IMG/VR virus record: IMGVR_UViG_3300010361_000006
Length of the DNA stretch: 45,489 nt
DNA from: a virus
Reading direction: 5' to 3' (one strand)
A model generated the notes under the pieces. It did not search any database, was not told the origin of the DNA, and was given only the letters and a program-made list of their open reading frames with translations. Both the position numbers and the translations under genes were made by a program. Positions 404-45,489 of the stretch are shown piece after piece; positions within the stretch are counted from its first letter, which is position 1, and each line of letters opens with the position of its first letter.

Positions 404-916
404 ATGGCAATTGGCGCATATCTCATCGCTGGCAACGTCTCCCGTGAAATCCAAATCCACACCTACACGTGGCAAATCAAGAAGGGTAATCTGCCGCAGA
501 CGCAGGCGACCATCAACGGCACGCCTAAGCAACTCATCAAGCGCACCAAGGGTCGCGGTCAAGGTACCGACATGGAGTTCTGCGCCTACTTCAGCGTGGC
601 GGATCGCGTAGTGGACGGGAAGCCGGAGTACACCAACTACTTCTTCTGGACCACCGATCTGTTCAAGGATGGGCTGCTCCCGGCGGATGCGCAGATCTTC
701 ACCGGCGACTACAAGGAGGTCCAGGTGCGGGAGGAAAAGCGCAAGGCGGAGGAGGCTGCGGCTGCGGAGGCTGCCGCTGCGGAGGCTGCGGCTGCGGAGG
801 CTGCCGCCAAGGCGGCTGAGGCGGGAAGCGCGTGGCAACCCACGGACGTTCAAGGCCCTCCCGCTCCCGTCAAGGCCAAGCGACGTGCTCCGCGCGCCAA
901 GAAGGTCGCAGCGTAA
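404..916 (+). CDS. Hypothetical protein with (AAAAE)n helical linker and basic C-terminal tail; stand-alone transcription unit
   Basis: 170-aa ORF starting at ATG 404, bracketed by promoter 277-304 and terminator 928-953. C-terminus reads KAEEAAAAEAAAAEAAAAEAAAKAAEA followed by KAKRRAPRAKKVAA. No family recognised by eye. Confidence 0.7.
   Translation: MAIGAYLIAGNVSREIQIHTYTWQIKKGNLPQTQATINGTPKQLIKRTKGRGQGTDMEFCAYFSVADRVVDGKPEYTNYFFWTTDLFKDGLLPADAQIFTGDYKEVQVREEKRKAEEAAAAEAAAAEAAAAEAAAKAAEAGSAWQPTDVQGPPAPVKAKRRAPRAKKVAA
746..823 (+). repeat. 15-bp tandem repeat (gcggaggctgcSgct) encoding the Ala/Glu linker of ORF 404-916
   Basis: gcg gag gct gcN gct is repeated about 4-5 times in frame within 746-823. 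Confidence 0.8.
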
Positions 917-927
917 GCTTACTTCAA

Positions 928-953
928 GACCCCGCTCCGGCGGGGTTTTTCTT
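928..953 (+). terminator. Rho-independent terminator after ORF 404-916
   Basis: Stem ccccgc (930-935) pairs with gcgggg (940-945) around loop tccg, followed by tttttctt, 12 nt after the stop codon. Confidence 0.8.
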
Positions 954-960
954 CGTCCTG

Positions 961-1149
961 GATCTTCCACCTCTCCATTCTCTCTGATCTCTACATCATT
1001 TGATCAGATGATGATCATAGGACGATCTATGGTCGGCATCACATAGATCGGTTATTGGATCAGATTGATAGATTGATCTATGAACTAGATTGATAGATCG
1101 TTCTGACGATCTCAGATCTCTGAGAGTCAGAGCGAGAGAGATCTCTCTC
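961..1149. repeat. GATC-dense iteron/palindrome array in a convergent intergenic region
   Basis: I counted 12 GATC sites between 961 and 1143. The 12-bp direct repeat agattgatagat occurs at 1062-1073 and 1087-1098. The ATAGATC motif occurs four times: 1043-1049 and 1093-1099 on +, 1024-1030 and 1075-1081 on -. A perfect 16-bp palindrome gagagagatctctctc lies at 1134-1149. TGATCAG/TGATCAT hexamers lie at 1001-1018. Confidence 0.85.
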
Positions 1150-1254
1150 ATAAAGCATTCTATCGGCGGGGCGGGTCATCAAATCGGTCAGGGATCGGTC
1201 ACTTTCTCAGCTACCCAACCCCTAATCAACTTGACACCCATGAAAATAGAACAA

Positions 1255-1899
1255 TTAGTCGTCCTTAAAAGCGATTAATATAGTCGCCCTCCCATGAGGT
1301 TGAAGTCCAGCTTCTACTCTGGCTTTGTTTTTCCTTTCAAAATGTCCATCCGCCCTTTTCTTCTTCTCAATGCTCACCACCTTCACATCCCTAATCAACG
1401 TCCCATCCTCCCTGTAGACTCGTTGCCTCTTTGCAAGCATTTGTTCCTGGACTAATTTACGAGCTCTAGCAATATCCTTTCGCCGATATTCCGGAGCAAG
1501 ATCTTCATTACGTTGTTTAAGAAATTGTTCCCTACACCCTATCAGCTCCCCCATCTGGTCGTATTTCGGCTCCCACGTCAGTTTCCGTTTCCATCTTTCT
1601 ATCTGGTGTGGGTATTTATCACCATCCGGGGGCGGATTCTTTCTAAGCCATTCCTTCACAAACGCCACGCGCTTTGGGAGCGTGGGGAAGTGATTTTTGC
1701 CCAATATGAAATTGCATTCTAAACAAGCAGATATCAGCAGGAGTAACACATCCGTCAAGTCATTCTTCCTAGCCCAGCTCAACGGTGGAACGTGGTCCTG
1801 GCAACTGTTCTGCTCCCCACAGTAGAAGCAGGTATGATAATCCAGTCCGGTGGGAATGAGATATTGAAAGTGTAAATCCAAGTTATCGTATACGCTCAT
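1255..1899 (-). CDS. HNH endonuclease (putative homing/packaging-associated)
   Basis: 214-aa ORF. Motif CFYCGE..SCQDHVPP...SACLECNFILGK matches the HNH pattern CxxC...H...CxxCN. Lys/Arg-rich C-terminus. AT-richer than neighbouring genes. Confidence 0.7.
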   Translation of the reverse strand: MSVYDNLDLHFQYLIPTGLDYHTCFYCGEQNSCQDHVPPLSWARKNDLTDVLLLLISACLECNFILGKNHFPTLPKRVAFVKEWLRKNPPPDGDKYPHQIERWKRKLTWEPKYDQMGELIGCREQFLKQRNEDLAPEYRRKDIARARKLVQEQMLAKRQRVYREDGTLIRDVKVVSIEKKKRADGHFERKNKARVEAGLQPHGRATILIAFKDD

Positions 1900-3407: not shown

Positions 3408-3791
3408 ATGCAATCCCATCCTACCATTCTTCCCTCCCCAGATGACACGGATAGCCAGTTGATGCCTGCGACACGGGATGAGCTGACCAAGTCTCTGGAA
3501 TATGCGCAGCGGCATAAGTCGCTTCCTCAGTTTCTTCGCGCGCGCGATGCTAGGCAGGCATTCAAGCAAGCGTTTGAGCTCATCGGTGGCGTCCCCCGGC
3601 TGGCCCTGTGGGCGGATCAAAACCCTGGCCAGTTCTACAACCTCTATGCGCGCTTCCTCAGCGATCCACAAGGGCGCAGTGATCCACCGCCCATCCAGCT
3701 GAACCTCTCATGGATGAAGGGTCGAGACCTGACCGGGACCGCGGTCGCTGTTTATCAGCCGGGTGAAGACGATGGAACCCCAGCTCCTTAA
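3408..3791 (+). CDS. Small terminase subunit candidate
   Basis: 127-aa ORF with AGGAGG 6 nt upstream of ATG 3408. It lies immediately upstream of and overlapping the large terminase gene. The assignment rests on position only. Confidence 0.5.
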   Translation: MQSHPTILPSPDDTDSQLMPATRDELTKSLEYAQRHKSLPQFLRARDARQAFKQAFELIGGVPRLALWADQNPGQFYNLYARFLSDPQGRSDPPPIQLNLSWMKGRDLTGTAVAVYQPGEDDGTPAP

Positions 3792-5094
3792 TTACGTCCC
3801 GCGTGGGTACTTCGTTTCTATGCATCAGCGGCAGCATCGGTGGGCGTGCGTGGTGGCCCATCGCCGCTCCGGTAAGACGTTCGCGCTGATTAACGACTTG
3901 ATTCTGGCGGCGTTGGAGTGTGTGCTGCCCCATCCACGGCTCGTCTTTGCCGCGCCCACCTATGCTCAGGCTCAGCGGATCGCATGGGACTACCTGAAGC
4001 GGCAGTCCGTTCCATTCCAGGAGAAGCGTCCAAATGAAACGGATCTATCAGTTCAGCTTCTGGGGGATCGCAGGATTTATCTTATTGGTATGGATAATCC
4101 TGACTCAATTCGTGGGCTGTATCTGGACGGGGCCGTACTCGACGAATTCGCATTTGCTAGACCGTCAGCTTGGTCTCAAATCATCCGTCCAGCGCTCTCC
4201 GACAGACGAGGATGGGCCGTCCTGTCCAGCACCCCTAATGGACAGAACCATTTCTATGACGTGTACAACTACGCTGTCGCCTCTCCCGCTTGGGCCACCT
4301 ACTTCCTACGGTACTCAGACACCCTCATCATCCCGCCCGACGAAATAGAATCGTTGCGGTCTAGCATGTCGGAAGAGGAATTTGAGCAGGAATATAATTG
4401 CAGTTTCACCGCTTCCATCATTGGATCAATCTATGGACGACTCATATCTGACCTTGAGTCGCGGGGACAGCTTGTCGACGCTCATTACGACTCTAGCAAG
4501 CCAGTTCAAATTGCGTTTGACTTGGGTTACGCCGACGCCACTGCGCTTTGGACTTTCCAACCGGCCATGGATGGCGTGGCCGTTTTGCAATATCACGAGA
4601 ACACGCGACAGCCAGTCGATTATTACATTGGATATCTTCGCTCCCAGTCTTTCACAATCAGTGATATCTGGCTCCCGCACGACGCCAAAGCGCATACGAT
4701 GGTTACTGGACGATCCATTCTTGATCAGTTCTTACAGGCATTCCCAGGACGGGTGCATATTGCTCCCAGACTCTCAGTTGCCGATGGAATTGCAGCGGTG
4801 CGGCAGCTACTCCCATCCTGTCATTTCACCTCCGCCTGTGCAGAGGGAATACGTAATCTGCGGCAGTATCAGTATCGGTATGACGAAGTCAAGCAATGCT
4901 TCAGCCAAGAGCCACTTCACGATTGGGCATCCAACGGAGCAGATGCTTTCCGCACGCTCGGAGTGGTTACTAGACCCGCACATTTGCTGCCCAAGGATGA
5001 TGTGGTAGAGGAAAAGAAGCCAGAGGAGAATGTGCTATGCCTACACAATCTATGGCAGGAATACGACAACCTACGCAAGACACGGAGGATATGA
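3763..5094 (+). CDS. terL: Terminase large subunit
   Basis: Walker A-like VVAHRRSGKTF and Walker B-like LYLDGAVLDEFAF. C-terminal nuclease-type motifs IAFDLGYADATA and WLPHDA. The start could be GTG 3763 or ATG 3772. Confidence 0.9.
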   Translation: MKTMEPQLLNYVPRGYFVSMHQRQHRWACVVAHRRSGKTFALINDLILAALECVLPHPRLVFAAPTYAQAQRIAWDYLKRQSVPFQEKRPNETDLSVQLLGDRRIYLIGMDNPDSIRGLYLDGAVLDEFAFARPSAWSQIIRPALSDRRGWAVLSSTPNGQNHFYDVYNYAVASPAWATYFLRYSDTLIIPPDEIESLRSSMSEEEFEQEYNCSFTASIIGSIYGRLISDLESRGQLVDAHYDSSKPVQIAFDLGYADATALWTFQPAMDGVAVLQYHENTRQPVDYYIGYLRSQSFTISDIWLPHDAKAHTMVTGRSILDQFLQAFPGRVHIAPRLSVADGIAAVRQLLPSCHFTSACAEGIRNLRQYQYRYDEVKQCFSQEPLHDWASNGADAFRTLGVVTRPAHLLPKDDVVEEKKPEENVLCLHNLWQEYDNLRKTRRI

Positions 5095-5279
5095 TGCCTT
5101 CAAAGAGTCCCGCCCAAGCTCGCCTGATGGCTGGCGTAGCGAATAACCCCAAATTCGCCAAGCAAGTCGGTATTCCTCAGTCGGTAGGGAAGGAGTTCAA
5201 TGACGCAGATATGAGGAAGAAGCAAGGACAGCTGGCAACCGCGTTGCGCGGTAAGAATCAACAAGGAGGGCAACTCTAA
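5091..5279 (+). CDS. Small conserved phage protein (DUF3008-like)
   Basis: ATG 5091/5094 overlaps the terL stop (ATGA) and has GGAGG just upstream. MMPSKSPAQARLMAGVANNPKFAKQVGIPQSVGKEF resembles the KS.aQ.r.M motif of DUF3008. The ORF-track start at 5037 would overlap terL by 58 nt. Confidence 0.5.
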   Translation: MMPSKSPAQARLMAGVANNPKFAKQVGIPQSVGKEFNDADMRKKQGQLATALRGKNQQGGQL

Positions 5280-7714
5280 TGCAGTACCTGGATTCCAGTC
5301 CGGCCAAGGTATCTAGTCCCTCCGCCTATCCGGATACGCCCGAAGGTAATCAACGTCGCTGGTGCGCTGAGATTGAGGCTTCGGTGAAGGAACTGCGTGA
5401 ATGGCATACGCAGGGGGACAAGGTCGTGCGTCGCTACGAAGATCGTCGCGATGCTGTGGACGCGGTGGATAGGAAGTATAATCTCTTCCCCACCAACGTC
5501 CTGATCATGGAATCCGCCCTCTATGAAAAGGCACCGACTCCAGAAGTTCGGCGAAAGTTTGATGATCCTAATGATGATGTGGGTCGTGTCGCTGCGTCGC
5601 TGGTGGAACGGGCGATAACGCAGGATTTGGATGAGCCGAGTACGAACTTCGGGCAGGTGATGAAAGCCTGCATCAAGGATTGGCTGGTTCCAGGCCTCGG
5701 CACTTGCTGGCTCCGTCTGCACGTAGAGACAACCACTCAAAACGATCCGACCCTCCAAGCAGATTACGAAGTGATCCAAGAGGAGGAGGTGGTAATTGAG
5801 CACGTCCATTGGAAGGATTTACTCTGGTCCCCGTGTCGTACTTGGGAGGAGCGGAGGTGGACTGGGCGGCGCGTCTACATGTACAAGGATCAGTGTATCA
5901 AGCGATTTGGCAAGGAGAAAGAGAAGGATATCAGCTACAAAACGCCCGCGCCCACCAATGCGGATCCCAATGAGCCTCAGCATGAGCTTTTCAAGCGAGC
6001 AGAGATTTATGAGATCTGGGACAGGGAAAAGAAGGAGGTTTGGTGGATTAACAAGGGGATGGAATACCCGTTGGACCACCGGGATGATCCTCTCAAGCTG
6101 ACAATGTTTGAACCGATGCCGAAACCGTTGTTCGCGCTGCAGACAACGAGTAATGTCGTGCCTCGGCCGGATTATGTGATGATCCAGGACCAGTATCAGG
6201 AGCTGGACATTCTTAACAATCGCATTTCCTTGCTGATTCAGGCATGTAAAGCGGTCGGCGTTTATGACAGAGCAAGCAACGGGGTGCAGCGGCTGATGAC
6301 GGAGGGCTTTGATAATGCTCTCATTCCTGTTGACAATTGGGCGATGTTTGCGGAGCGTGGTGGGCTCAAGGGAGTCATCGACTGGCTTCCTCTGGAAGTG
6401 GTCGTCACAGCCGTACAAACGCTTGTCACCGCCCGAGAGGCGATTAAGCAGCAGATTTATGAGCTCACCGGCATTGCTGACATCGTTCGTGGTGCGACTA
6501 AGGCCAGTGAAACCCTCGGTGCTCAAGAACTAAAGGCGAAATTTGCTTCTATCCGAATTCAAACGCGTCAAGAAGATGTTGCCCGCTTCGCAAGTGAGAT
6601 CTTCCGTATCAAAGCTGAGATGATGCTTAAGCATATGCAGTTTGACACCGTCCTGCAGCGATCTGGGGTCGCCTATCTCAACGAGCAGCCGCAACTCGTC
6701 CAGCAGGCGGTACAGCTCCTGCGTGATGCCAATGAATTTGAGTGGCGAATCAACATTCAGTCCGATTCGATGGCCCAGATTGACTACGAGGGTGAGAAAC
6801 AGGACAGAATGGACCTGCTCAACACCCTCGGCAGCTTCTTTACGGGCGCAGTGCCGGCGATGGAGCAGGCACCGGACCTTCTCCCCCTAGGCGCGGCCAT
6901 GATCAAGTACGTCGTGGCGAGTTTCCGTGCGGGTAAGGAGATTGAGGGTGTGCTGGACATGGTTGTGGATGGAATGGTGCAGCAATATCAGCAACAGAAG
7001 GCGAATCCGCAGCCGAAGCCGAATCCGGCCATGATGAAGGCCCAAGCGGACGTGCAAGCCACCCGGATGAAGACTCAGGCACAGGTGGAAGGCACTCGCG
7101 CTAAGACTCAGGCATCGATGGAAAAGACTCGCATGGAAATGGGCATGAAACGCCTTGAACTCGTGCATGATGCGACAATTAAGGAGAAGGAGCACCAGAT
7201 GGACATGCGAAGCCTCCAGCAAGAGCAATTGCTCAAGGCTCAGCAGCAACATTTCGATCAGGCGCAGGCTCGGGAGGCTCAACTCCACAATATGTCACTG
7301 GCGGAGCAAGGTCAGGGCCATGAGCAAGCGCTGGCTACGCAAGGGCAGGGACATGAGCAGGCACTCGCCCGTCAGGGTCAGGGCCATGAGCAGGCACTAG
7401 CGGAACAGGGGCAACGACATGAGCAAGCCTTGGCAGTCAACAGTCAGGGACACAAACAAGCGCTCGCGGAAGATCAAGCAAAAGCTGACCAGCGACTTGC
7501 CCGGCAGCAAGCGACAGCTGAGGCAGGAGGAGGAAGTCTACCAGAACTTCCTGCCGAGGGGAGCGCTACGACGGATGCGAAGCTCGACAAAATGATGGAT
7601 GCCATCACCCAGATGGCTCAGGCCATTGGTCAGCTCTCCCAAACAATGAGTGCGCCCAAGCGAGTCGTTAGAGACCACATGGGCCGCGCCGTAGGCATGG
7701 AGGTCGTTAGATAA
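5279..7714 (+). CDS. Portal protein with repeat-containing helical C-terminal extension
   Basis: 811 aa, directly after the terminase genes, with a TAATG junction. Size and position fit a podovirus portal. The last ~250 aa are Q/A/E/K-rich helical sequence including five 11-aa repeats. Confidence 0.8.
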   Translation: MQYLDSSPAKVSSPSAYPDTPEGNQRRWCAEIEASVKELREWHTQGDKVVRRYEDRRDAVDAVDRKYNLFPTNVLIMESALYEKAPTPEVRRKFDDPNDDVGRVAASLVERAITQDLDEPSTNFGQVMKACIKDWLVPGLGTCWLRLHVETTTQNDPTLQADYEVIQEEEVVIEHVHWKDLLWSPCRTWEERRWTGRRVYMYKDQCIKRFGKEKEKDISYKTPAPTNADPNEPQHELFKRAEIYEIWDREKKEVWWINKGMEYPLDHRDDPLKLTMFEPMPKPLFALQTTSNVVPRPDYVMIQDQYQELDILNNRISLLIQACKAVGVYDRASNGVQRLMTEGFDNALIPVDNWAMFAERGGLKGVIDWLPLEVVVTAVQTLVTAREAIKQQIYELTGIADIVRGATKASETLGAQELKAKFASIRIQTRQEDVARFASEIFRIKAEMMLKHMQFDTVLQRSGVAYLNEQPQLVQQAVQLLRDANEFEWRINIQSDSMAQIDYEGEKQDRMDLLNTLGSFFTGAVPAMEQAPDLLPLGAAMIKYVVASFRAGKEIEGVLDMVVDGMVQQYQQQKANPQPKPNPAMMKAQADVQATRMKTQAQVEGTRAKTQASMEKTRMEMGMKRLELVHDATIKEKEHQMDMRSLQQEQLLKAQQQHFDQAQAREAQLHNMSLAEQGQGHEQALATQGQGHEQALARQGQGHEQALAEQGQRHEQALAVNSQGHKQALAEDQAKADQRLARQQATAEAGGGSLPELPAEGSATTDAKLDKMMDAITQMAQAIGQLSQTMSAPKRVVRDHMGRAVGMEVVR
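7301..7465 (+). repeat. 33-bp tandem repeat x5 inside the portal gene (A-E-Q-G-Q-G-H-E-Q-A-L units)
   Basis: The units are gcggagcaaggtcagggccatgagcaagcgctg, gctacgcaagggcagggacatgagcaggcactc, gcccgtcagggtcagggccatgagcaggcacta, gcggaacaggggcaacgacatgagcaagccttg and gcagtcaacagtcagggacacaaacaagcgctc. Confidence 0.9.
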
Positions 7715-24850: not shown

Positions 24851-25330
24851 TTACATGTACTTTCCTACGGAGTCTGCTATTACTTCCAGCCGCTTCTGTA
24901 CTTCACCATCAAAGCTGGATACGATAGGGCTATTCATCAGTTCCGCCATGCGCTTCAATCCGTTGAGCCACACGGGCTGGATGATGACATTGCCCATACT
25001 AAACTCAGCTTGACAGAAGGCATTGAGCTCAGTGATGTCTAACCAATCTAACATCCACCGGTCCTCTGGGGAGAGCATGTCTTCCACAACATTATGCTGT
25101 GCCAAAAATGTGTCACTTGCAGCATCTAAACCATCACGGAGAATAGGTGATCCCCACTTGGCCGGAGCGGGTACATCACCCGTCCACTGCTCCGCCCAGT
25201 CGTGCATTAGCACGGCGCGCACCAGCGTATGAGTAGGGTTTTGAACGCTATAGAGCAGCGCCAGCATGTTCGCGACATGCTCTCCTACCGTTTGTTGCTG
25301 GTGCGTGCGGACGGTGTGAAAACGCCTCAC
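24851..25330 (-). CDS. HD-domain phosphohydrolase (YfbR-like 5-prime deoxynucleotidase type)
   Basis: RRFHTVRTHQQQTVGEHVANMLALL...VLMHDWAEQWTGDVPAPAK contains the H...HD...D motifs of the HD superfamily. The start is uncertain. The ORF extends to ATG 25567 but would then overlap the upstream gene by 209 nt. The first in-frame start after that gene ends is GTG 25330. Confidence 0.7.
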   Translation of the reverse strand: MRRFHTVRTHQQQTVGEHVANMLALLYSVQNPTHTLVRAVLMHDWAEQWTGDVPAPAKWGSPILRDGLDAASDTFLAQHNVVEDMLSPEDRWMLDWLDITELNAFCQAEFSMGNVIIQPVWLNGLKRMAELMNSPIVSSFDGEVQKRLEVIADSVGKYM

Positions 25331-25358
25331 GGCGTTTCCATTTAGTCCAATGCGGAAG

Positions 25359-26354
25359 TCATCGAGCAGCAGGGGAACTTCCTCTTCGCTTGAGCCAAGA
25401 CCAGATGGCGAGGCTCCAGTCTTTAGCTCGCAGTCGCGTGATTTCTTCCCCGGCCCGTGCGTATTCCCCTGTCGCGACGCAGTCCCAGACACGACGGATG
25501 GGAATGGCCACACTCTGCCAGAATGGGTCTTTGAGGTCATGCCACTCTCCTTCAACAAAACGTTCACAGTCTAACATCCACCTCCCCACGGCACCACTAT
25601 TCACCATTGGAAAGGTAAGGATACCATTCGCCTCATACGGATCCAGCGGGTTCAGCCTATTGTCATACATGCCTGCTAGGCTGAATCCATCTACGTACAT
25701 GTGATAGTCATTGCTGAACTGATACATCCTGCCCTGATACACACCCACGGCATGCGCGATAAACTCATGGAGCATGCTCATGTGGACCGCGTTAGCGCCC
25801 AAGGCTCCCCAGATGAAGTCATTGCTCCTAGCCGTCACAGTCATGTCTAGGCAGTTGTCCCTCATAGAAAAGTAGATTTGGGTGTTGCACGGCACATCCT
25901 TCCCATCATAGTTTGTTAGACTGTCCCAGTTGGGACTGTACATCGTCATCACAGCACGGCGACTGTTACGGTACTTCTTAAAGTGCTCAACAATATCCGC
26001 AATCTGGTCAAAGCCAAAGCTATGAATCCATCGCCGGCCATATGCGCCGTGTAGACTCTCCCCGTCGTCACTGTACTTGCTTATTCCGTCATTGAACTGC
26101 TTCAGGAATGTGACGTCATTATGGCCCGCCATCATCCACAGACCTTCCATGAAGTGGAAGAATGGATTGGCGTCTCGATAGTAATTGAACAGCACACGCT
26201 CATTCGGCTTTTCATAGGTCGCACAGACCGGAGTAGGGCAGCGTAACACCTTCCCATTCCGGCTGGATTCTACACGGATGGTAGAATGATAGAAGTACTG
26301 AACCACTTGTGCATAGATGTGGTTCACGTTGCGACCTGAGATGTTTAATATCAT
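25359..26354 (-). CDS. Thymidylate synthase (ThyA) family enzyme, probable deoxypyrimidylate (dUMP) hydroxymethylase
   Basis: 331 aa. ThyA motifs present: FHFMEGLWMMAGHND, YGRRW, NSRRAVMTMYSP, catalytic Cys in VPCNTQIYF, ARSNDFIWGALGAN and SNDYHMYVD. The hydroxymethylase role is inferred from the neighbouring genes. Confidence 0.75.
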   Translation of the reverse strand: MILNISGRNVNHIYAQVVQYFYHSTIRVESSRNGKVLRCPTPVCATYEKPNERVLFNYYRDANPFFHFMEGLWMMAGHNDVTFLKQFNDGISKYSDDGESLHGAYGRRWIHSFGFDQIADIVEHFKKYRNSRRAVMTMYSPNWDSLTNYDGKDVPCNTQIYFSMRDNCLDMTVTARSNDFIWGALGANAVHMSMLHEFIAHAVGVYQGRMYQFSNDYHMYVDGFSLAGMYDNRLNPLDPYEANGILTFPMVNSGAVGRWMLDCERFVEGEWHDLKDPFWQSVAIPIRRVWDCVATGEYARAGEEITRLRAKDWSLAIWSWLKRRGSSPAAR

Positions 26355-27211
26355 GTTCTTTCCTCATGTGGAACATACATTTGCTTGGGCGCGGTGCCCT
26401 CATTGAACTTCACCCTACACCACTTGTCAAACTCACAGAGACAATTCTGCACGTCCTGCGCGTGGAGCTGCATCGCTGGTATCTGTGTCATCAACTCGTC
26501 CATCTCTGCCCGGAACTGTGCCACGCTAATCTGCTTTTCTATGGGCCTATTATGGAGCCGGTTCAGCCCACGGACTGATCCTGGCCCCGGCGCACACCAT
26601 GTCCACCAGTCGTCCGCTCCACGGAGCGCCACCGTATACTTCATATCTGCTATGATCTGGCCCGCCAGGAACGTGCTGATGCCCTTAGCTTGCGTAAGCA
26701 CCTCCTCCGCCTCAGCCAGCCGGCTGCACTGGCACAACTCTTCTTTATAGGTCCAGACCCGTCCCACGAGTAGGATGGTGAAGTTGATCTTGGACATCCC
26801 CTTACTCTCAGTGCCGGTGACCATGTAAGCACTGGTAAATGTCTTCTTCCCGGTAAGTTGACGTGCTTGAACTGTTCGGCGCACGTAATCTGCAACAGCA
26901 GCATCCCAACGTTCAACATACCCGATCTCGGCAAGCGTTTGAGGCCAGTTAATGATACGCGCCAACGTGACGTTGAGCCATAGGTAAGGATCCCCATCAT
27001 GGGGGTCACGGATATTTTCCTTAATCCATCTTGTGACCGTATCGTCCTCACGGTGAACGTTACAGAAGCGATATGTCTGTAGGATTTTATCTTCCGTCCA
27101 TGGTGGGGGCAGATGTTCAATATCCTTTGCGATGTGTATGCGGTGTCTCTCCAGTATCCAATACTTGAACGCATCCAACATCTCCTTGTTTAACCCATTA
27201 CTTTGGAGCAT
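26351..27211 (-). CDS. aGPT-Pplase family (alpha-glutamyl/putrescinyl-thymine pyrophosphorylase-like) DNA base hypermodification protein
   Basis: ATG 27211 is preceded by ggaggaaaaata. 286 aa. HLPPPWTEDKILQTYRFCNVHREDDTVTRWIKENI matches my recollection of the conserved N-terminal signature of this family (PPWT.D.IL..YRFcNV.RE.DrvT.W). This needs HMM confirmation. Confidence 0.6.
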   Translation of the reverse strand: MLQSNGLNKEMLDAFKYWILERHRIHIAKDIEHLPPPWTEDKILQTYRFCNVHREDDTVTRWIKENIRDPHDGDPYLWLNVTLARIINWPQTLAEIGYVERWDAAVADYVRRTVQARQLTGKKTFTSAYMVTGTESKGMSKINFTILLVGRVWTYKEELCQCSRLAEAEEVLTQAKGISTFLAGQIIADMKYTVALRGADDWWTWCAPGPGSVRGLNRLHNRPIEKQISVAQFRAEMDELMTQIPAMQLHAQDVQNCLCEFDKWCRVKFNEGTAPKQMYVPHEERT

Positions 27212-27512
27212 TATTTTTCCTCCAACGACGAACATATTGGTTTAATCCTTTCATGTGCATGCGTGCATGCTCTGCTAAGTTCATCTTTTCAAGATTATCA
27301 AAATCATTATTCTGTTTATTGTCATCCTTATGATGTACTAATGGATCATTGCCTTTCCAATGCTCACCTGTATTTTCCCACCAAACAAGTCTATGCTTGG
27401 TCACATAACGTGTACCAAAGACTGGATGATCTACAACTTTCACTTCAACATATCCAGATTTGGCATCGACATATTCATATCCAGCAGATACGCGCCATTT
27501 ATACTTGCCCAT
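27198..27512 (-). CDS. HNH homing endonuclease
   Basis: 104 aa. KHRLVWWENTGEHW..LVHHKDDNKQNNDFDNLEKMNLAEHARMH is an HNH_3-type motif. The gene is strikingly AT-rich: two 60-nt stretches I counted are 40% and 27% G+C, against about 50% in flanking genes. Confidence 0.85.
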   Translation of the reverse strand: MGKYKWRVSAGYEYVDAKSGYVEVKVVDHPVFGTRYVTKHRLVWWENTGEHWKGNDPLVHHKDDNKQNNDFDNLEKMNLAEHARMHMKGLNQYVRRWRKNNAPK

Positions 27513-28065
27513 ACAATGTCCTCACATCTTCGTAGGACTCCACTTTAACGGCGTTGCGGTGCAATTCATTCTGTAGTCTATCCCATAGCCGCCACATCGC
27601 GGCATCTTTGTCAATTATGTTAACGGGGTTGAGGGGACGAGTATCTCCACGGGCCAGCCTCCGCTCCTGGGTGCGACGGATACATTCCTCTATGGGCGTG
27701 GTCATGAAAGCGAATATGTGGTCGTCTCCCCACTGTTCGCTTACCTTACCCATCCGTCCATAGAAGCCGCTGGCAATCATGGATTCATAAAAGACATTAT
27801 AACCGGACGCCCCATAGTGGGCGATCAGGTTCACGCAAGTATCGCTGTCCAAAGCGTCTAGTCCCCCGCAGACTGTTGTGTATGGACCAAGGATCCATAG
27901 CGGGAACTCCCACCCCATGTCGCAGAGATATGCTTCCGGCTTGCGGCCATCACGCCTTACCTCCTTGACCTCTTTACTTTCTTCTAGGAACCTGCGAGCA
28001 ATCGTCGTCTTGCCACTGCCACAGGTGCCCATCAACTTGACTATCTTACGTTGGGGCATTACCAT
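27499..28065 (-). CDS. P-loop kinase (candidate 5-hydroxymethyl-dU DNA kinase or dNMP kinase)
   Basis: 188 aa. Walker A KLMGTCGSGKTTIARRF, with size and composition of a small nucleotide kinase. TAATG junction with the SNF2 gene. Confidence 0.6.
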   Translation of the reverse strand: MVMPQRKIVKLMGTCGSGKTTIARRFLEESKEVKEVRRDGRKPEAYLCDMGWEFPLWILGPYTTVCGGLDALDSDTCVNLIAHYGASGYNVFYESMIASGFYGRMGKVSEQWGDDHIFAFMTTPIEECIRRTQERRLARGDTRPLNPVNIIDKDAAMWRLWDRLQNELHRNAVKVESYEDVRTLYGQV

Positions 28066-29459
28066 TATAAAACTCCTTCATGTCTAAACCTACTCGTAGG
28101 AGGTTTTAGAGCGTTTTTTACATCGTCATCCGTAGCCTCCTTGGAGGCCAGCACATTCATCACTCTTTCGTCTAATGTGTCCCGAGCAATAATCCAGTGG
28201 AGGGTGACATGCTCCCCGGTGTTGCCTTGACGGTACACTCGTTTAAGGAACTGGTAGTACCACTCATAGTTCCACGTGATGCCGAACATGCAGACGTGAT
28301 GGCATGCGCACTGCAGATTAAGGCCGTGGCCCATACTAGCAGGATGGCCAATAAGATGAGGGATGATACCACGATTAAAGCTTTCATTGACGTACTCCAA
28401 TTCCTTGGTCGTAGTCAAGTTTACGGTTCGCGGAATTGTTCGCTCAATAGACTCCGCATCGAACTGAAACTCATACGCGGTGAGTAGTGGTTGGCCTTGG
28501 AGCTGCTCGACAAGATCAGCCAGTGCGCGGATCTTCTCGAAGTGAAGCGGACTGACCCGACGGTTAGCGTTGTCCCCCTCATAGTAAATGCTACCATTTG
28601 CGATTTGACGACACTTCCCTCCAACAACGGCAGCGTTTGGAGCAAAGACAGGCTCACCTCCCGCCAGAAGCGTAAAGAACTTTCGCTGCATTTCAACATA
28701 GTGACGGCGGGCAGCGGGAGGAAGGTCAACATAGATGCGATCATGTACCAGCTCCGGTAGGTCAATGAAGTCCTCTTCACTGAAGTGAATGAGTGTGTCC
28801 TTTAGCTTATCCTGTATCTCCTTTGCCGCACCGGGCATCAGCTCCAGACTATAGTTGTCAAATGGATCTTGACGGAAGTACATGGAGCGGTAGTGAGTGA
28901 TGAACTTACCCAACGCCTTCCCCATATCACAGATGTACACCTGACCAAAGAGGTCCTCATAGCCATTGGGCGCGGGCGTGCCGGTCAATATCACCCTCCG
29001 CTTGAACTGTGGGAGGAAAGGCTTCAACGCCTTGAACCGCTGCGTTTGTGTGTCCTTAAACTTCGTGGATTCATCCACAATGAGACAGTCAAATCCTTGT
29101 CCTGCCCACAGCTTCGGGTCTAAGATGATCTTTAGACTTTCTGGGTTGATCAGGTAAATCTGGTGGTTCTGCTTCAGCAGTGCAATGCGCTCCTTCGCCT
29201 CCAGCTCACACAGATTGCAGATATCAAGATGGTTGAAATCGTCCCACTTCTGGATCTCCAAAGGCCACACAAGCTTACAAACTCGTAACGGCGCGACTAC
29301 AAGTACCTTATGGATCTTGCCTGCCTTCAACAAGATATCTATAGCTGCCAGCGCAATAGATGTTTTCCCCATCCCGGGATCCAATATGATACCGGACCCA
29401 AAGTGCTCAATGACCCACTGGACGCCAACTACTTGATAGGGGTGAGGTTCCCAACGCAT
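28065..29459 (-). CDS. SNF2-family DNA helicase/translocase
   Basis: 464 aa. Motif I ILDPGMGKTSIALAAI, motif II CLIVDESTKFK, motif III VILTGTPAPNGYEDLF. C-terminal helicase lobe (..GHGLNLQ..). Confidence 0.85.
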   Translation of the reverse strand: MRWEPHPYQVVGVQWVIEHFGSGIILDPGMGKTSIALAAIDILLKAGKIHKVLVVAPLRVCKLVWPLEIQKWDDFNHLDICNLCELEAKERIALLKQNHQIYLINPESLKIILDPKLWAGQGFDCLIVDESTKFKDTQTQRFKALKPFLPQFKRRVILTGTPAPNGYEDLFGQVYICDMGKALGKFITHYRSMYFRQDPFDNYSLELMPGAAKEIQDKLKDTLIHFSEEDFIDLPELVHDRIYVDLPPAARRHYVEMQRKFFTLLAGGEPVFAPNAAVVGGKCRQIANGSIYYEGDNANRRVSPLHFEKIRALADLVEQLQGQPLLTAYEFQFDAESIERTIPRTVNLTTTKELEYVNESFNRGIIPHLIGHPASMGHGLNLQCACHHVCMFGITWNYEWYYQFLKRVYRQGNTGEHVTLHWIIARDTLDERVMNVLASKEATDDDVKNALKPPTSRFRHEGVL

Positions 29460-30217
29460 TCATATCTCCCGAGGACTGGAGCGGGTAGGAGTGATTGAAG
29501 CTCCGGCCAGCCGTCCAGCGCTTTCCTCTTATCCTCAATATCATCGCCAATCTGGTGCGTCTTTGTGATAAACGCACCCTTGATCATACATAAGACTGTT
29601 TCTGCCTCCTGCAGTGCGCAGTATCCTGCGCGATAACCCAACGGGATAGATTGTATGTGCGCAAGCACCGTCTCAAGCGCTTGTGATCGTGATAGGTCAG
29701 GGAACACATGGACAGCCGCTTCTTTCGGCTCCTTGGGTAGATACTGGCAGGCTTCATCCAGCGATAGCTCGATATCATGATCGAAAACCCTCGTCTGCAA
29801 GTCTAGTACTTTCCATATGAAATACTCCCCAAATCCACAGCCTCTAAACGGCCCCTTGGTAAAGAGATGGACTAGGCTGGTGTAGTTGCCCGCCACCATA
29901 CTCTCAAAGGCCGTGGCGGGGCTCTCTGTGGCTCCCCTAAGCCTCGCCATAGCGTTGCGGCCCTGTGCGCCCCGGTAATGCCTCCTTTCCGTCCCACGTT
30001 GGAGGTTGTCAAATTCGTACTCATACCTAGACCACGACCAGTGCTCTTCGGCAGCGCGGGCAGCGTCCCCTGCATGATAGAAGAGGAGGAAGTGGAGGCA
30101 GTATCGCTTCACCCATTCCTCTCCCTTGAGGGCGCGGGCATGGTACGCCATCTGGTACATGGGATCTAGATCGTTAGATTCAATCGTAACCGTCGCGAAT
30201 CTATGCCAGCTCTCCAC
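29429..30217 (-). CDS. Hypothetical helical protein; possible second glycosylase-fold hypermodification transferase (aGPT-Pplase clade 2/3-like)
   Basis: The ORF extends to ATG 30289, a 124-nt overlap with VRR-NUC. GTG 30217 and ATG 30160 are alternative starts. DLDPMYQMAYHARALKGEEWVKRYCLHFLLFYHAGDAARAAE and an all-helical composition. The assignment rests on context and vague resemblance only. Confidence 0.35.
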   Translation of the reverse strand: MESWHRFATVTIESNDLDPMYQMAYHARALKGEEWVKRYCLHFLLFYHAGDAARAAEEHWSWSRYEYEFDNLQRGTERRHYRGAQGRNAMARLRGATESPATAFESMVAGNYTSLVHLFTKGPFRGCGFGEYFIWKVLDLQTRVFDHDIELSLDEACQYLPKEPKEAAVHVFPDLSRSQALETVLAHIQSIPLGYRAGYCALQEAETVLCMIKGAFITKTHQIGDDIEDKRKALDGWPELQSLLPAPVLGRYECVGNLTPIK

Positions 30218-30498
30218 TCGCTCAACGCTGCTATCGCCTCCTCCGCGTTGTCCGTCCACATGGCCTTGAATCCCTGTTCCTTCAACCATTTGATCCTCCA
30301 GAATTGTAGAGTGGTGGGCTTTTCCCCGGGTCGCTTGAATTCAATGAAGAATACCTGACCGAAATAGAGGAACTCCACATCCGGCCAGCCCCGGTTACCT
30401 CTAAGGGTGAGCTTGAAGCTTTCCATCCCCCATTGAGCGTGCGCATGCTCGCGCACATTGTTTTCTGTCTTACTTTCCAAATCGGTCGCCAAGTTCAC
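30166..30498 (-). CDS. VRR-NUC domain nuclease
   Basis: 110 aa. GWPDVEFLYFGQVFFIEFKRPGEKPTTLQ carries the D..ExK PD-(D/E)XK core typical of VRR-NUC. Confidence 0.75.
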   Translation of the reverse strand: MNLATDLESKTENNVREHAHAQWGMESFKLTLRGNRGWPDVEFLYFGQVFFIEFKRPGEKPTTLQFWRIKWLKEQGFKAMWTDNAEEAIAALSEWRAGIDSRRLRLNLTI

Positions 30499-31177: not shown

Positions 31178-32921
31178 AGCCAATATCCACCCTAAAGGGA
31201 ACATCAAACCCCGCCATGTCTTCCATGGCGGACCTGATTACCTTAGTTTCGTACAGGATACTGTCTACGGGAACGTTGAATACGTTTTCGTCATGCACCG
31301 TCATAAGAAACTCCCCCGCATGGGGGGAGTCATGGTAACGGATGAGGGATTCCTTGGTTTGGTCTGCAGCCGAACCTTGGATAAGATAGTTAACCAGCTT
31401 GTAGTTAAATGAGCACCAACGTCCGTTGATTATCTTAGAAGGCTCAACGGGTATCGTTCGCCCACCGGATGTTCGTACGTAATCCCGGGAGGACACTTCG
31501 TCGATGAATTCCCTGAGTCCGTACATGGAGTTGAAGTAGGCTTCTCGTATGGTATAGGCCGTGGCGTAATCAACGGCAAGTCCGTGGGAGAGGGATCTGG
31601 TGCCTTCTCCATAGACGAGGCCGAAACCAACTGCTTTAGTTGCTCTTCTCTCAAGCCGTAGACCGGATTCTGTAGAGACAATTCCAGCAGCCACTTGGTG
31701 GAGGTCTGCTTCTGGGTCATCAAGGTAGATCTGCTGAAGTCGTCCTTCGGCAAAGTGGGCAAGTAGTCGCATTTCTTGGGATTTGTAATCTGCCGCGACA
31801 AGTAGGCATCCATCTTCCGCGAGGATATATTGCCGCATTGGAGGCAATGGAGGATAACCTGCCGGAGGGTTTCCTTGGAGTACATCTGGGATATTTTGAA
31901 AGTTAGGATCGCTGCATGATAGCCTCCCCGTGCGTGTTCCATAGTCATCCCCACGCACGGCATTCCAACTCGGGTGAACGCGTCCATCGCGCGCAGACAG
32001 TCGAAGCCATCCCCGCATGAAAGTTCCAAGTAGAGTCTTAAGTTGTCCTCGGTAAGCGAGCAATCCAACAAGATGATCATTTTTGACTCCAATGAGAAGA
32101 TTTTCACGGGACGTAGAGAGCTTACCCGTGGGGGTGCGGGGCCATTCCTCCTCCACTCCCAGCCCTGCGGCCAGTATAGCCGCTGTCAGCTCAGGACCGC
32201 TATCCAGGTTGACACTAATACCACAATGCAGAATAGAGCGGATATCATCGTCCAGACGGATATATACGGATTCGTAATATTCTGTGTCTCTAGCAAGGCG
32301 AGCACGATCAATACGCACACCGCGACGCTCAGCGGCAGCAAGGATAGGGGAAAGTAGAAGCTCGCGCACATAGGCTGCCTCCATCCGCTGACCCAATATT
32401 TCTGGGTACAGCCTATCATACAGTTTACGAGTACGGACGACGTCGCCTATGGCGTAGCGGCCTACAAGGTCGCCTGGACACAGGCATATCTTATCGCCCC
32501 AATGCTTGCAGTTCCACGCGATCAGCTTCTGTGCCCGCAACCATTCGCCTAGGGCATCTTGCTCATCAGGAGGAATCCCAAGAATGCGTTCGCTACTAGG
32601 CTTAAGAGATACAGAATCTGCGTGGGGGTCGTGAAGGTAGATAAGGAACTGCGTATCATCAATACGATTTGGGTAATCAAAGCCAAAGTGACTAGATGCA
32701 ACGCCAATGTCAAACTTTGCGTGGTGAAACAGACCATGATCCCACACCTCCGCAAGACGGCGGCGACCATCCTCCCACGTGCTGTTATTGTTCGTGGGAT
32801 GGCCCCACGCAAGATATTCAGGAGATTTGCCCTCCTCCCATATGGCCACGCCAACGGGGGAGGGTGATAGACCGCTTCCAAACTGAATTGCCTGAGTTTC
32901 AAAATCACATGTTGTAATCAC
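31086..32921 (-). CDS. DNA polymerase I (family A) with 3-prime-5-prime exonuclease domain
   Basis: 611 aa. Exo I TCDFETQAI, motif A VAADYKSQEMRLLAHF, motif B RRATKAVGFGLVYGEG, motif C LMTVHDENVF. Confidence 0.92.
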   Translation of the reverse strand: MITTCDFETQAIQFGSGLSPSPVGVAIWEEGKSPEYLAWGHPTNNNSTWEDGRRRLAEVWDHGLFHHAKFDIGVASSHFGFDYPNRIDDTQFLIYLHDPHADSVSLKPSSERILGIPPDEQDALGEWLRAQKLIAWNCKHWGDKICLCPGDLVGRYAIGDVVRTRKLYDRLYPEILGQRMEAAYVRELLLSPILAAAERRGVRIDRARLARDTEYYESVYIRLDDDIRSILHCGISVNLDSGPELTAAILAAGLGVEEEWPRTPTGKLSTSRENLLIGVKNDHLVGLLAYRGQLKTLLGTFMRGWLRLSARDGRVHPSWNAVRGDDYGTRTGRLSCSDPNFQNIPDVLQGNPPAGYPPLPPMRQYILAEDGCLLVAADYKSQEMRLLAHFAEGRLQQIYLDDPEADLHQVAAGIVSTESGLRLERRATKAVGFGLVYGEGTRSLSHGLAVDYATAYTIREAYFNSMYGLREFIDEVSSRDYVRTSGGRTIPVEPSKIINGRWCSFNYKLVNYLIQGSAADQTKESLIRYHDSPHAGEFLMTVHDENVFNVPVDSILYETKVIRSAMEDMAGFDVPFRVDIGYGRNYHELTADPMELLGHQHVQGLSSGVYV

Positions 32922-33457
32922 TTTGAGCCTCCTTTTGCTGCAATGTTTTTTCTACGAGTCTCCCATCCTTTTAGAGTTGCTTTATGTGTACTGCCGGTTG
33001 CTTTTCTTGTTTCGGCAGATCTAGCAGCAGCTATGAGATCCATTCCACTAATTTTTCTAGATTCTGCTCCTCTTCTAATAGCATCCAACATCTTTTCTCT
33101 ATCTGTAATCCATCGTTTTCGTGAGGCTTCTCCGATTTTTCTACAGCGTTCAGGGTCTTGCAGAACTTCAAGCTTGTGGGCAGCTTCTAATGCGAGCTTG
33201 ACATTCTTAAAACACGAATGCCTTCCTTTCTGTACAGCATCATCTACATTGTCCTTCCACGTGCCTAGGAAGTGATGACTGTCTTCGATGCAAAGAGGAT
33301 TGTCACATGTGTGACATACTGCCAAGGTAGAATTATTGATAAGACCATGCCTGAGCTGATAAACTTGCCTAGATGGTCCAGCTGGATGTATTAAGCATCC
33401 GCCAATTCTTTCAGCTTCAGCTTCATACTGTTGAACGGTCTTTTTGGTGGTGTGCAT
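32918..33457 (-). CDS. HNH homing endonuclease
   Basis: 179 aa. VCHTCDNPLCIEDSHHFLGTWKDNVDDAVQKGRH is an HNH-type motif, followed by a basic helical C-terminal region. AT-richer than the adjacent polymerase gene. ATGA junction with the pol start. Confidence 0.8.
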   Translation of the reverse strand: MHTTKKTVQQYEAEAERIGGCLIHPAGPSRQVYQLRHGLINNSTLAVCHTCDNPLCIEDSHHFLGTWKDNVDDAVQKGRHSCFKNVKLALEAAHKLEVLQDPERCRKIGEASRKRWITDREKMLDAIRRGAESRKISGMDLIAAARSAETRKATGSTHKATLKGWETRRKNIAAKGGSK

Positions 33458-39265: not shown

Positions 39266-39371
39266 AGATGGTTCTCTTTCCTATGCCGTTGCAAAAACGG
39301 CATCGCCGTCGGTACTGACCGACGACACCGCGACCTTGACATGCATCACACTTGACGATTTTTACGCCCAT
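39189..39371 (-). CDS. Small DnaJ-type zinc-finger protein (CxxCxGxG x2)
   Basis: 60 aa with CDACQGRG and CRFCNGIG. The 3-prime 77 nt overlap ORF 38972-39265. Confidence 0.5.
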   Translation of the reverse strand: MGVKIVKCDACQGRGVVGQYRRRCRFCNGIGKRTIYVPTISKTSEEAVPATPTPRKRREP

Positions 39372-39655
39372 TGATCCGTACCACGGAATCGCACCCCGAT
39401 ATTGGTGATGCGGATGTTGTCCCTGTCACCGTCCAGGTAATGGTATATACCCTCTTCCCGTCCATACCACTCACCGTACTTGACCCACCACTTCCACTTG
39501 TGGAAGAGGACATACCCACTCCAGCTATTGCCGGGATACTCCAGCTGCTCACTGTGTGTGAGCATGATAAACCAGTAGCCTGCGTACTTCCGCAGCTCAC
39601 GCTTCTTACTTCCATCTGCAATAAAACGTTTTTCAGTCATGATGATTGTTGACAT
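39362..39655 (-). CDS. Hypothetical Trp/Tyr-rich protein
   Basis: 97-aa ORF whose end abuts the next start. The alternative frame 39346-39621 is Ser/Thr/Gly-rich and looks like a shadow ORF. Confidence 0.5.
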   Translation of the reverse strand: MSTIIMTEKRFIADGSKKRELRKYAGYWFIMLTHSEQLEYPGNSWSGYVLFHKWKWWVKYGEWYGREEGIYHYLDGDRDNIRITNIGVRFRGTDQWA

Positions 39656-45055: not shown

Positions 45056-45077
45056 TGGAGTGGGATGGTGTACAGTT

Positions 45078-45110
45078 GGCTCAGCTCCTTGGTGGGTGCG
45101 GGGCTGAGCC
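45078..45110 (+). terminator. Hairpin after primase-helicase gene (terminator-like, no U-tract)
   Basis: ggctcagc (45078-45085) pairs with gctgagcc (45103-45110) around a 17-nt loop. It starts 23 nt after the stop. Confidence 0.4.
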
Positions 45111-45366
45111 GAAGTTACAGGGTGAACAGTATTACAGTACTTCTTTTAAAATATAAGTAAAATATAGAATACTGATTAAATAGGGGTATAGAAAAAAAAA
45201 CTTTTCTCAGGTATGTACTGGTTACTGTATTGAACCATTTTGGTCCCCTCCATTTAAGGGGAAAATTGGAGATTAAAGTCCGATCTGATAATCAAAGATT
45301 GCAAAAGTCAGAAATAGCGAAAACTCATTTACGACCCAGAAATGACCCTGTCATCACTCATCCATC

Positions 45367-45489
45367 ATGGTCAAATCTTGAATCAGATCTGACTTCCGAT
45401 AGAGCCTTCGGATAGAGCGATCTTTGAATCAATCAGATGTATCTCCAGACCCGAGATAGACCCTTCTATCCGACACCTCCAGTGGCATC
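45367..45489. repeat. Direct terminal repeat, right copy (identical to 1-123)
   Basis: Identical to 1-123 over the full 123 nt by direct comparison. Confidence 0.95.

Follow-up and report, generated by a model that had tools for sequence, protein, structure and literature searches.

Here we describe a dense cluster of GATC sites in IMG/VR virus record IMGVR_UViG_3300010361_000006, a 45,489-nt stretch of phage DNA (hereafter the window), and identify it as array B (961-1176), one of two homologous non-coding arrays of predicted protein-binding motifs. Together with its partner, array A (45279-165), it brackets one small gene, predicted to be separately transcribed, just to the right of a probable replication origin (45048-45230). 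We read the arrays as conserved cis-acting protein-binding elements that are probably not an origin themselves; our leading guess, which we hold tentatively and place ahead of a role in origin-adjacent control, is that they constitute the recognition region for DNA packaging. The array is of a familiar kind, that of the iteron and operator arrays in phage control regions, and no new mechanism is demonstrated here. Most useful in our view is that a probable origin with variable specificity repeats can be separated from two arrays with conserved motifs. This split points to concrete candidate cis-elements, for replication as well as packaging, in a phage from soil that has a thymidine-hypermodification pathway, and it allows a non-coding control region to be dissected in a lineage that is almost without relatives.

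The 12 GATC sites that a preliminary description of this DNA had counted in 183 nt (961-1143) start at positions 961, 986, 1002, 1013, 1024, 1046, 1058, 1075, 1096, 1108, 1115 and 1140, and a 13th in the same gap starts at 1193. That description put the chance expectation below one site; it is in fact about one, and the excess is as strong as was supposed, with a Poisson probability for at least 12 sites in 183 nt of ~8e-10, or ~2e-7 after correction for the number of windows. Across the genome GATC is neither avoided nor generally enriched (248 sites per 45,489 nt, or one per 183 nt, which is 0.86x the Markov expectation) and it is nowhere else similarly dense: the next densest window holds 6 sites, and no window in 200 order-3 Markov simulations held more than 8. 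The k-mer GAGATC occurs 5 times against 0.12 expected. The tetramer TCGA, unlike GATC, is strongly depleted genome-wide (39 observed, 97 expected under the Markov model), which may reflect a host restriction system.

The cluster lies in a 338-nt gap (917-1254) between the convergent open reading frames (ORFs) 404-916 (plus strand) and 1255-1899 (minus strand). The gap is as conspicuous as had been suggested, ranking second in non-coding size among the called genes of the surrounding 10 kb after a 714-nt gap at 45056-403. Stop codons interrupt all of its frames, none of which is open or conserved, in keeping with the earlier reading of the gap as a protein-binding type of motif array, and a search of 1-1500 against Rfam returned nothing near any gathering score. 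Array B has a GC content of 41%, compared with a genome average of 52.6%, and for low duplex stability it ranks about fifth to seventh in the genome. Helical phasing of the GATC sites is marginal (best period 10.5 bp, permutation P 0.06) and we base no claim on it. The GC skew, in which a search for an inflection had been proposed, tracks the orientation of the genes, and the gap does not stand out in it.

Rather than forming one repeated unit, the GATC sites of array B are distributed over three motif families, each of which is able to carry GATC. The first consists of 13-bp iterons, SATAGRNCGWTCT, placed ~25 bp apart, some of which combine with an inverted copy into 16-bp dyads of the form SATAG-N6-CTATS, with half-sites one helical turn apart. 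Allowing up to 2 mismatches, the iteron SATAGAKCGWTCT has 17 unique matches in the genome where ~6 are expected, and 11 of the 17 fall in 32-162 and 1016-1161; perfect dyads occur only three times in the genome (89-104, 1016-1031 and 1067-1082), always inside an array. The four plus-strand iterons of array B start at 1016, 1042, 1067 and 1092, with ATAG cores at 1017, 1043, 1068 and 1093 and a spacing of 25-26 nt, and each holds exactly one GATC, which occupies iteron positions 9-12, 5-8, 9-12 and 5-8 in turn. The second family comprises the palindromes TCWGATCWGA at 17-26, 133-142 and 999-1008, and the third the GATCTC(T) motifs at 986, 1108, 1115 and 1140, the last of which centres the palindrome GAGAGAGATCTCTCTC. 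The shorter motifs noted previously can all be located among these elements or beside them, namely four ATAGATC motifs, two per strand (1043 and 1093 on the plus strand, 1024 and 1075 on the minus strand), a 12-bp direct repeat, AGATTGATAGAT, with copies at 1062 and 1087, 25 nt apart, the TGATCA[GT] hexamers at 1001, 1011 and 1012, and GAGAGAGATCTCTCTC itself, a perfect palindrome at 1134-1149.

Array A contains the same three motif families. Its right part (1-165) carries TCAGATCTGA at 17-26, iterons at 32, 45 and 150, the perfect dyad at 89-104 and TCTGATCAGA at 133-142, while the conserved word AAAACTCATTTAC lies with TCCGATCTGA in its left part (45279-45366), beyond which 45367-45489 duplicate 1-123. 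A composite unit of 32 nt, TCTGATCAGA-N7-SATAGGACGATCT, is found in the same orientation at 131-162 and at 997-1028, 866 bp apart, and the two arrays share more 7- to 10-mers than pairs of random genome segments (P 0.001-0.007). The suggestion that one protein may bind both the GATC cluster and the start of the window is thus supported as far as shared motifs are concerned, but the start of the window is not the terminal repeat it had been taken for. The window holds the complete ~45.37-kb genome of a phage as a circular assembly, and the 123 bp are an exact overlap of its two ends (1-123 are identical to 45367-45489). The same genome is present in ENA, JGI and Logan assemblies at 99.7-99.8% identity, and four independent assemblies are circularly permuted, starting at ~13.6 kb, 41.5 kb, 3.6 kb and 45.37 kb in window coordinates. 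The repeat is therefore an assembly overlap of a circular contig, whose length would fit a k-1 overlap at k=124, and it says nothing about the physical ends of the phage DNA.

Between the arrays lies a cassette on the plus strand (277-916) composed of a sigma-70-like promoter (TTGCAT-N16-TATAAT, 277-304), a structured 5' untranslated region (UTR) of ~100 nt, an ORF for a 170-aa protein (404-916) and a terminator. The protein has no Pfam match, no PHROG match above threshold and no convincing match to a solved structure, and no DNA-binding domain or Rep/winged-helix signature was detected in it; its AF2 model is of low confidence (predicted local distance difference test score, pLDDT, 52) and gave nothing significant in Foldseek. 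A search of 1.84 billion representative proteins returned only one real homologue. Within the gene, a 15-nt tandem repeat in 5 copies (746-820) encodes (AAAEA)n, and the 5' UTR has a direct repeat, GGGTGAACCC, in 2 copies 15 nt apart (340-364).

The comparative evidence comes from the only detectable relative, a fragmentary one represented by two contigs, L145 and L146, both from Logan sample SRR34099798. It encodes a homologue of the 170-aa protein (P0005, 44% identity over residues 1-101 in a 107-column BLASTP alignment) and a homologue of the primase-helicase (P0002, 40% identity), the latter being one of only 2 homologues (40% and 25% identity) that a search of 5.8 billion proteins gave for the primase-helicase. 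The order of elements in L145 matches that of the window: an upstream array, a promoter (TTGCAT-N16-TAAAAT), the gene with the same UTR and start context, a terminator hairpin, iterons, an inverted repeat, the palindrome word GAGAGAGATCTCTC and the flank AAAAGCATGCTATGGCAGGGCGGGG, with one extra small ORF after the gene. Its terminator hairpin, CCCGCTCCGGCGGG with a T-run (1226-1250), is the same as that of the window and likewise precedes the array; its iterons are four copies of TGATAGGACGA(T/C)G at a spacing of 25 nt, in which the core GATAGGACGA is kept; and its inverted repeat, CGTCCCAC-N12-GTGGGACG, differs in sequence from, and is equivalent in position to, window 1105-1133. TCTGATCAGA is also present in the relative (L146 3099-3108). 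The two phages have 23 non-coding 10-mers in common where 2.8 are expected, a number reached by 0 of 500 controls. Among their conserved non-coding words are AAAACTCATTTAC, GGTCTGATCAGA, GATAGGACGAT and the palindrome word GAGAGAGATCTCTC, and the two longest that are exactly conserved are the palindrome of array B and AAAACTCATTTAC of array A.

The density of GATC is not part of what is conserved. The 1475 nt of L145 include 3 GATC sites, and the iterons homologous to those of the window have GATG or GACG as their last letters, so that GATC is carried by 4 of 4 iterons in array B, 2 of 4 in array A and 0 of 4 in the relative. Conservation in related phages, on which the earlier interpretation had been made to depend, therefore holds for the motif cores, the 25-nt spacing and the palindrome and fails for the GATC sites: the motif cores and architecture are conserved, and the GATC excess is specific to the window's lineage. 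Within the species, conservation is uninformative because the strains are 99.7-99.8% identical. The relative has its own palindromes and repeats. All 6 GANTC sites of L145 fall within its first 93 nt, in the upstream array, which contains two ATGGACTGAGTCCAT-type palindromes; the tail of L146 (2970-3132) has 4 GANTC sites; and a non-coding direct repeat of ~60 nt in L146 (3019-3080 and 3160-3219, 141 nt apart) contains ACTCATTTA(C/G), with the contig ending inside the second copy.

Wider searches yielded little to compare. A more distant primase relative (L147) was too short and divergent to be used, and no DNA match to 700-1500 was found among GenBank phages, the nearest isolates having only 33-40% identical TerL or portal proteins. 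TerL relatives in IMG/VR are at most 42% identical and show no comparable GATC cluster, and one of them (L002) has an unrelated, repeat-rich 1-kb non-coding region of its own. Matches in IMG/VR to the pattern GATCTATG-N9-11-ATAGATC were rejected as chance matches, the one from the same metagenome (L067) lying in apparent coding sequence. The conserved pattern of palindrome plus flank had 0 matches in IMG/VR and JGI metagenomes, a primase-based metagenome scan found nothing, and the HNH-like neighbour at 1255-1899 had no detectable relatives outside the species.

The preliminary description had also offered the GATC cluster as a replication origin, and for this role a better candidate is available 1.1 kb away. 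Positions 45128-45230 form the least stable duplex genome-wide (~4.8 standard deviations from the mean in a 60-nt window) and include an AT-rich stretch (45130-45215, GC 22%, core 45141-45215) that begins ~75 nt after the stop codon of the primase-helicase gene. All 3 TACAGTA heptamers of the genome are found here, at 45048 and 45133 on the plus strand and 45223 on the minus strand; the hexamer ACAGTA occurs at 45049, 45126 and 45134 on the plus strand and 45223 on the minus strand, and its variant CAGTAC at 45217 on the minus strand. The relative has the same layout at L146 2756-2924 built on a different hexamer, GTAGGT (8 occurrences against 0.98 expected), with plus-strand copies to the left of the AT-rich core and minus-strand copies to the right. 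This is the architecture of the self-loading superfamily 3 (SF3) helicase origins of Staphylococcus aureus pathogenicity islands (SaPIs), in which opposed short iterons surround an AT-rich core directly after the rep gene and the iteron sequence varies between relatives (PMC9371898). In the window, likewise, the region is directly 3' of the primase-helicase ORF and has an AT-rich centre with at least 2 opposed iterons on each side. Unlike its SaPI counterpart, the window's helicase is fused to a DUF3854 domain, which we read as a Toprim-type primase; the helicase domain itself (residues 410-622) matches a phage primase-helicase structure.

We therefore consider 45048-45230, which lies outside the GATC array, to be the probable replication origin. 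The C-terminal 140 residues of the primase-helicase are only 24% identical to those of the relative, compared with 40% overall, which would fit an origin-recognition domain that co-varies with the hexamers; the model of this region, where a SaPI-type helicase would have an origin-binding winged helix, is a helix-helix-beta-hairpin of low confidence (pLDDT 63) with no significant Foldseek match. The GATC array contains none of the ACAGTA or TACAGTA repeats and has no AT-rich unwinding element, and there is no match to the DnaA box TTWTNCACA in the whole genome. Array B is thus unlikely to be an origin in the absence of both hexamers and DnaA boxes. Since the origin hexamers (ACAGTA and GTAGGT) and the primase C-terminus diverge between the two phages while the array motifs are conserved, we infer that the arrays would need a different conserved binder, that is, one or more sequence-specific proteins other than the origin-recognition domain.

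Recognition for packaging is the role that we tentatively favour for such a binder. The terS-TerL-portal genes lie at 3408-7714, and the product of the putative small terminase gene (3408-3791) would bind the iterons and dyads, and cleavage would fall on or close to the palindrome GAGAGAGATCTCTC(TC), which is strictly conserved, and the conserved flank beside it. Lying 866 bp apart, the composite units might define both ends of a terminal repeat with the small gene inside it, or alternatively the arrays could be binding clusters that flank a pac site. The presence of one GATC per iteron in alternating registers suggests that a GATC-reading layer may have been added, such as the gating by methylation known from P1 pac. 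Regions of the cos and pac type generally have a symmetric conserved site beside binding repeats, placed upstream of the terminase genes, as in the cosN site of lambda with the R sites of cosB, and the position of array B and its palindrome upstream of terS, TerL and portal resembles this; packaging sites also tend to stay conserved where terminases are conserved, and both points would count in favour of packaging. The likeness to lambda cos is incomplete, as the putative small terminase gene is not adjacent to the site and a partner array lies 0.9 kb away.

Several observations weigh against a packaging role. A block of minus-strand genes separates array B from the putative small terminase gene, which is 2.2 kb away; a second array beyond a gene is, to our knowledge, not a feature of classical cos and pac sites; like the 170-aa protein, the putative small terminase matches no Pfam family and no PHROG above threshold; and the comparative support comes from the single fragmentary relative. 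Independent Logan (k=31) and JGI contigs also cross both arrays unbroken and end instead at the 15-nt tandem repeat 746-820, which is weak evidence against cohesive ends of the lambda kind and has no bearing on terminal-repeat or headful packaging. The grounds on which packaging had been proposed earlier, a likeness to the pac site of P1, do not carry over to the motifs found here. P1 pac consists of seven TGATCA/G hexamers inside pacA, in two groups on either side of the cut site, where GATC methylation gates cleavage (PMC10028697). The window resembles it in packing GATC-containing short motifs densely into less than 200 bp of a proposed terminase recognition region, but only 2-3 of its GATC sites have the TGATCA/G context, the sites belonging to three other families, and TGATCA[GT] is scattered genome-wide (28 sites). 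The array is, moreover, intergenic and remote from the putative small terminase gene, and is one of two. A candidate packaging site thus survives as our leading guess on other grounds than the P1 hexamers. If the GATC sites are read as methylation sites, the phage would join P1, with its pac site, as a second case in which methylation gates DNA processing; if not, the array is an ordinary, though unusually dense, protein-binding array.

A less probable but still plausible role is origin-adjacent control, in which the 170-aa product binds both arrays, loops or handcuffs the DNA, and either modulates initiation or autoregulates its own gene. Related arrays on both sides of a small gene are the layout of iteron replicons, and in P1 the incC and incA arrays bracket repA in this way beside the origin. 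The layout recurs in the relative, where the array-gene-array cassette is kept and the N-terminal domain of the protein is 44% identical; array A starts ~50 nt from the putative origin, and the low duplex stability of array B would also suit such a role. GATC-carrying iterons in more than one cluster are known from ori2 of V. cholerae, where RctB iterons, each with a GATC, form ori2-min and ori2-inc beside the initiator gene (PMC6090056). The iterons of ori2 are however 12-mers set head-to-tail 10-11 bp apart, compared with ~25 bp and many dyads here, the window has no RctB-like protein and a separate probable origin, and the iterons of the relative lack GATC. The window also differs from P1 in that no Rep/winged-helix signature was detected in the bracketed protein and the genome lacks DnaA boxes, together with an origin that is apparently of the SF3 self-loading type and would need no second initiator (PMC9371898). 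The bracketed protein has no detected DNA-binding domain and only a low-confidence structure model, array A does not cover the promoter but lies upstream of it by more than 110 nt, and the strictly conserved palindrome, which is present in array B only, is left unexplained. We consider it unlikely that the arrays are instead operators at which a dimeric phage regulator binds the 16-bp dyads and, by looping as between lambda OL and OR around cI, silences or times the 170-aa gene or blocks convergent read-through. The helical-turn spacing of the half-sites is typical of helix-turn-helix (HTH) dimers, and two arrays 0.9 kb apart around one transcription unit with its own promoter and terminator would suit looping, but array B, lying between convergent genes, has no promoter on which to act, and operators usually diverge quickly, unlike the present motif cores, which are kept between phages with 40% identical proteins. 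Pfam searches of 20 small and mid-size ORFs and PHROG searches of 10 mid-size ORFs revealed no HTH regulator, and no methyltransferase, ParB or integrase.

The remaining explanations turn on the GATC sites themselves or on RNA. That the array is itself a replication origin or an element sequestered by Dam and SeqA through GATC hemimethylation, by analogy with oriC or P1 oriR, appears very unlikely to us. The GATC density exceeds that of oriC, the array is GC-poor relative to the genome, and the recurrence of GATC in every iteron of array B, in alternating registers, and in three unrelated families hints at selection on GATC. Against this stand the better origin at 45048-45230, with its comparative support, the lack of DnaA boxes, the loss of GATC density in the relative, the marginal phasing and the fact that no SeqA-like gene was recognised, nor any methyltransferase in the ORFs scanned; probable thymidine hypermodification may, in addition, block Dam. 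The Dam/SeqA comparison drawn in the preliminary description is weakened by these observations. We give somewhat more room, while still regarding it as quite unlikely, to a methylation-gated switch tuned to the orphan methyltransferase of the host, which would read GATC here and GANTC in the relative. The arrays might also be the boundaries of a ~0.9-1.1 kb terminal repeat carrying the first-expressed gene, and adenine methylation by the host would act on the same sites as thymidine modification by the phage. Least probable of all is an RNA-level element, in which the palindromes would serve the two convergent transcripts as hairpins in the 3' UTR, as RNase III sites or as a terminator zone acting in both directions. 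The minus-strand RNA of 955-1260 folds with a z-score of -4.0, and a hairpin at 1172-1239 is strand-specific (z = -5.45 on the minus strand, +0.95 on the plus strand). This accounts for 1172-1239 only and not for the array, whose GATC-centred DNA palindromes fold alike on both strands; the DNA fold has a z-score of only -1.1, array A has the same motifs ahead of a promoter, and Rfam gave no match.

The individual elements of array B can be followed from left to right. The left border of the gap is the intrinsic terminator of gene 404-916 (926-951, plus strand), which a terminator scan identified as CCCCGCTCCGGCGGGG followed by a T-run. Next is a CT-rich spacer (961-992) with GATC 961 and 986 that includes TCTCTGATCTCT, of the GATCTC(T) family; a direct repeat (D15) links 981-992 with 1110-1121. 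A 20-bp palindrome, CATCAT(T/C)TGATCAGATGATG (994-1013), is centred on GATC 1002, contains TCTGATCAGA and is perfect in 3 of 4 strains. Dyad B1, CATAGGACGATCTATG (1016-1031, GATC 1024), is a perfect SATAG-N6-CTATS with the core ATAGGACGAT that is common to the L145 iterons, and the plus-strand iteron CATAGATCGGTTA (1042-1054, GATC 1046) forms with 1023-1031 an inverted repeat, CGATCTATG-N10-CATAGATCG, whose stem is present in the DNA fold. The plus-strand motif GATCAGAT(T) (1055-1066) carries GATC 1058, and its word AGATCAGATT is also found at L145 13-23 and L146 3118-3128. It is followed by the perfect dyad B2, GATAGATTGATCTATG (1067-1082, GATC 1075), the plus-strand iteron B3, GATAGATCGTTCT(GAC) (1092-1107, GATC 1096), and the dyads GACGATCTCAGATCTCTGA and CTCTGAgagTCAGAG (1105-1133, GATC 1108 and 1115), which are evident in both the sequence and the DNA fold. 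Of the palindrome at 1134-1149, with GATC 1140, the word GAGAGAGATCTCTC is identical at L145 1383-1396, and the array closes with a near-dyad, CATAAAGCATTCTATC, and the G-rich GGCGGGGCGGG (1149-1176), which are conserved beside the palindrome and align to L145 AAAAGCATGCTATGGCAGGGCGGGG.

To the right of the array, the minus-strand hairpin at 1172-1239 (-37.1 kcal/mol) lies 3' of the stop codon of the HNH-like gene 1255-1899, and L145 has a weaker hairpin at the same position. It is probably the 3' stem-loop of the HNH-like mRNA rather than part of the binding array, and may act as a 3' stabiliser or an RNase III-type site. The HNH-like gene is one of four HNH-endonuclease-like genes in the genome (the others at 27198-27512, 32918-33457 and 39362-39655), two of which are only weak matches; as one of four, it is more likely to encode a homing endonuclease than a packaging factor.

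The recognised source samples appear, from the JGI sample name, to be soil metagenomes. On the minus strand at 24851-30289 the phage has a thymidine-hypermodification gene cluster with a YfbR-like deoxynucleotidase, a thymidylate-synthase-like enzyme, a 5-hydroxymethyldeoxyuridine (5-hmdU) DNA kinase helical domain and a P-loop kinase, as well as a match below cut-off to an amino acid:DNA transferase (compare PMC5889632, PMC8989533). The phage thus probably replaces or hypermodifies thymidine, in which case the T of the GATC sites may be modified.

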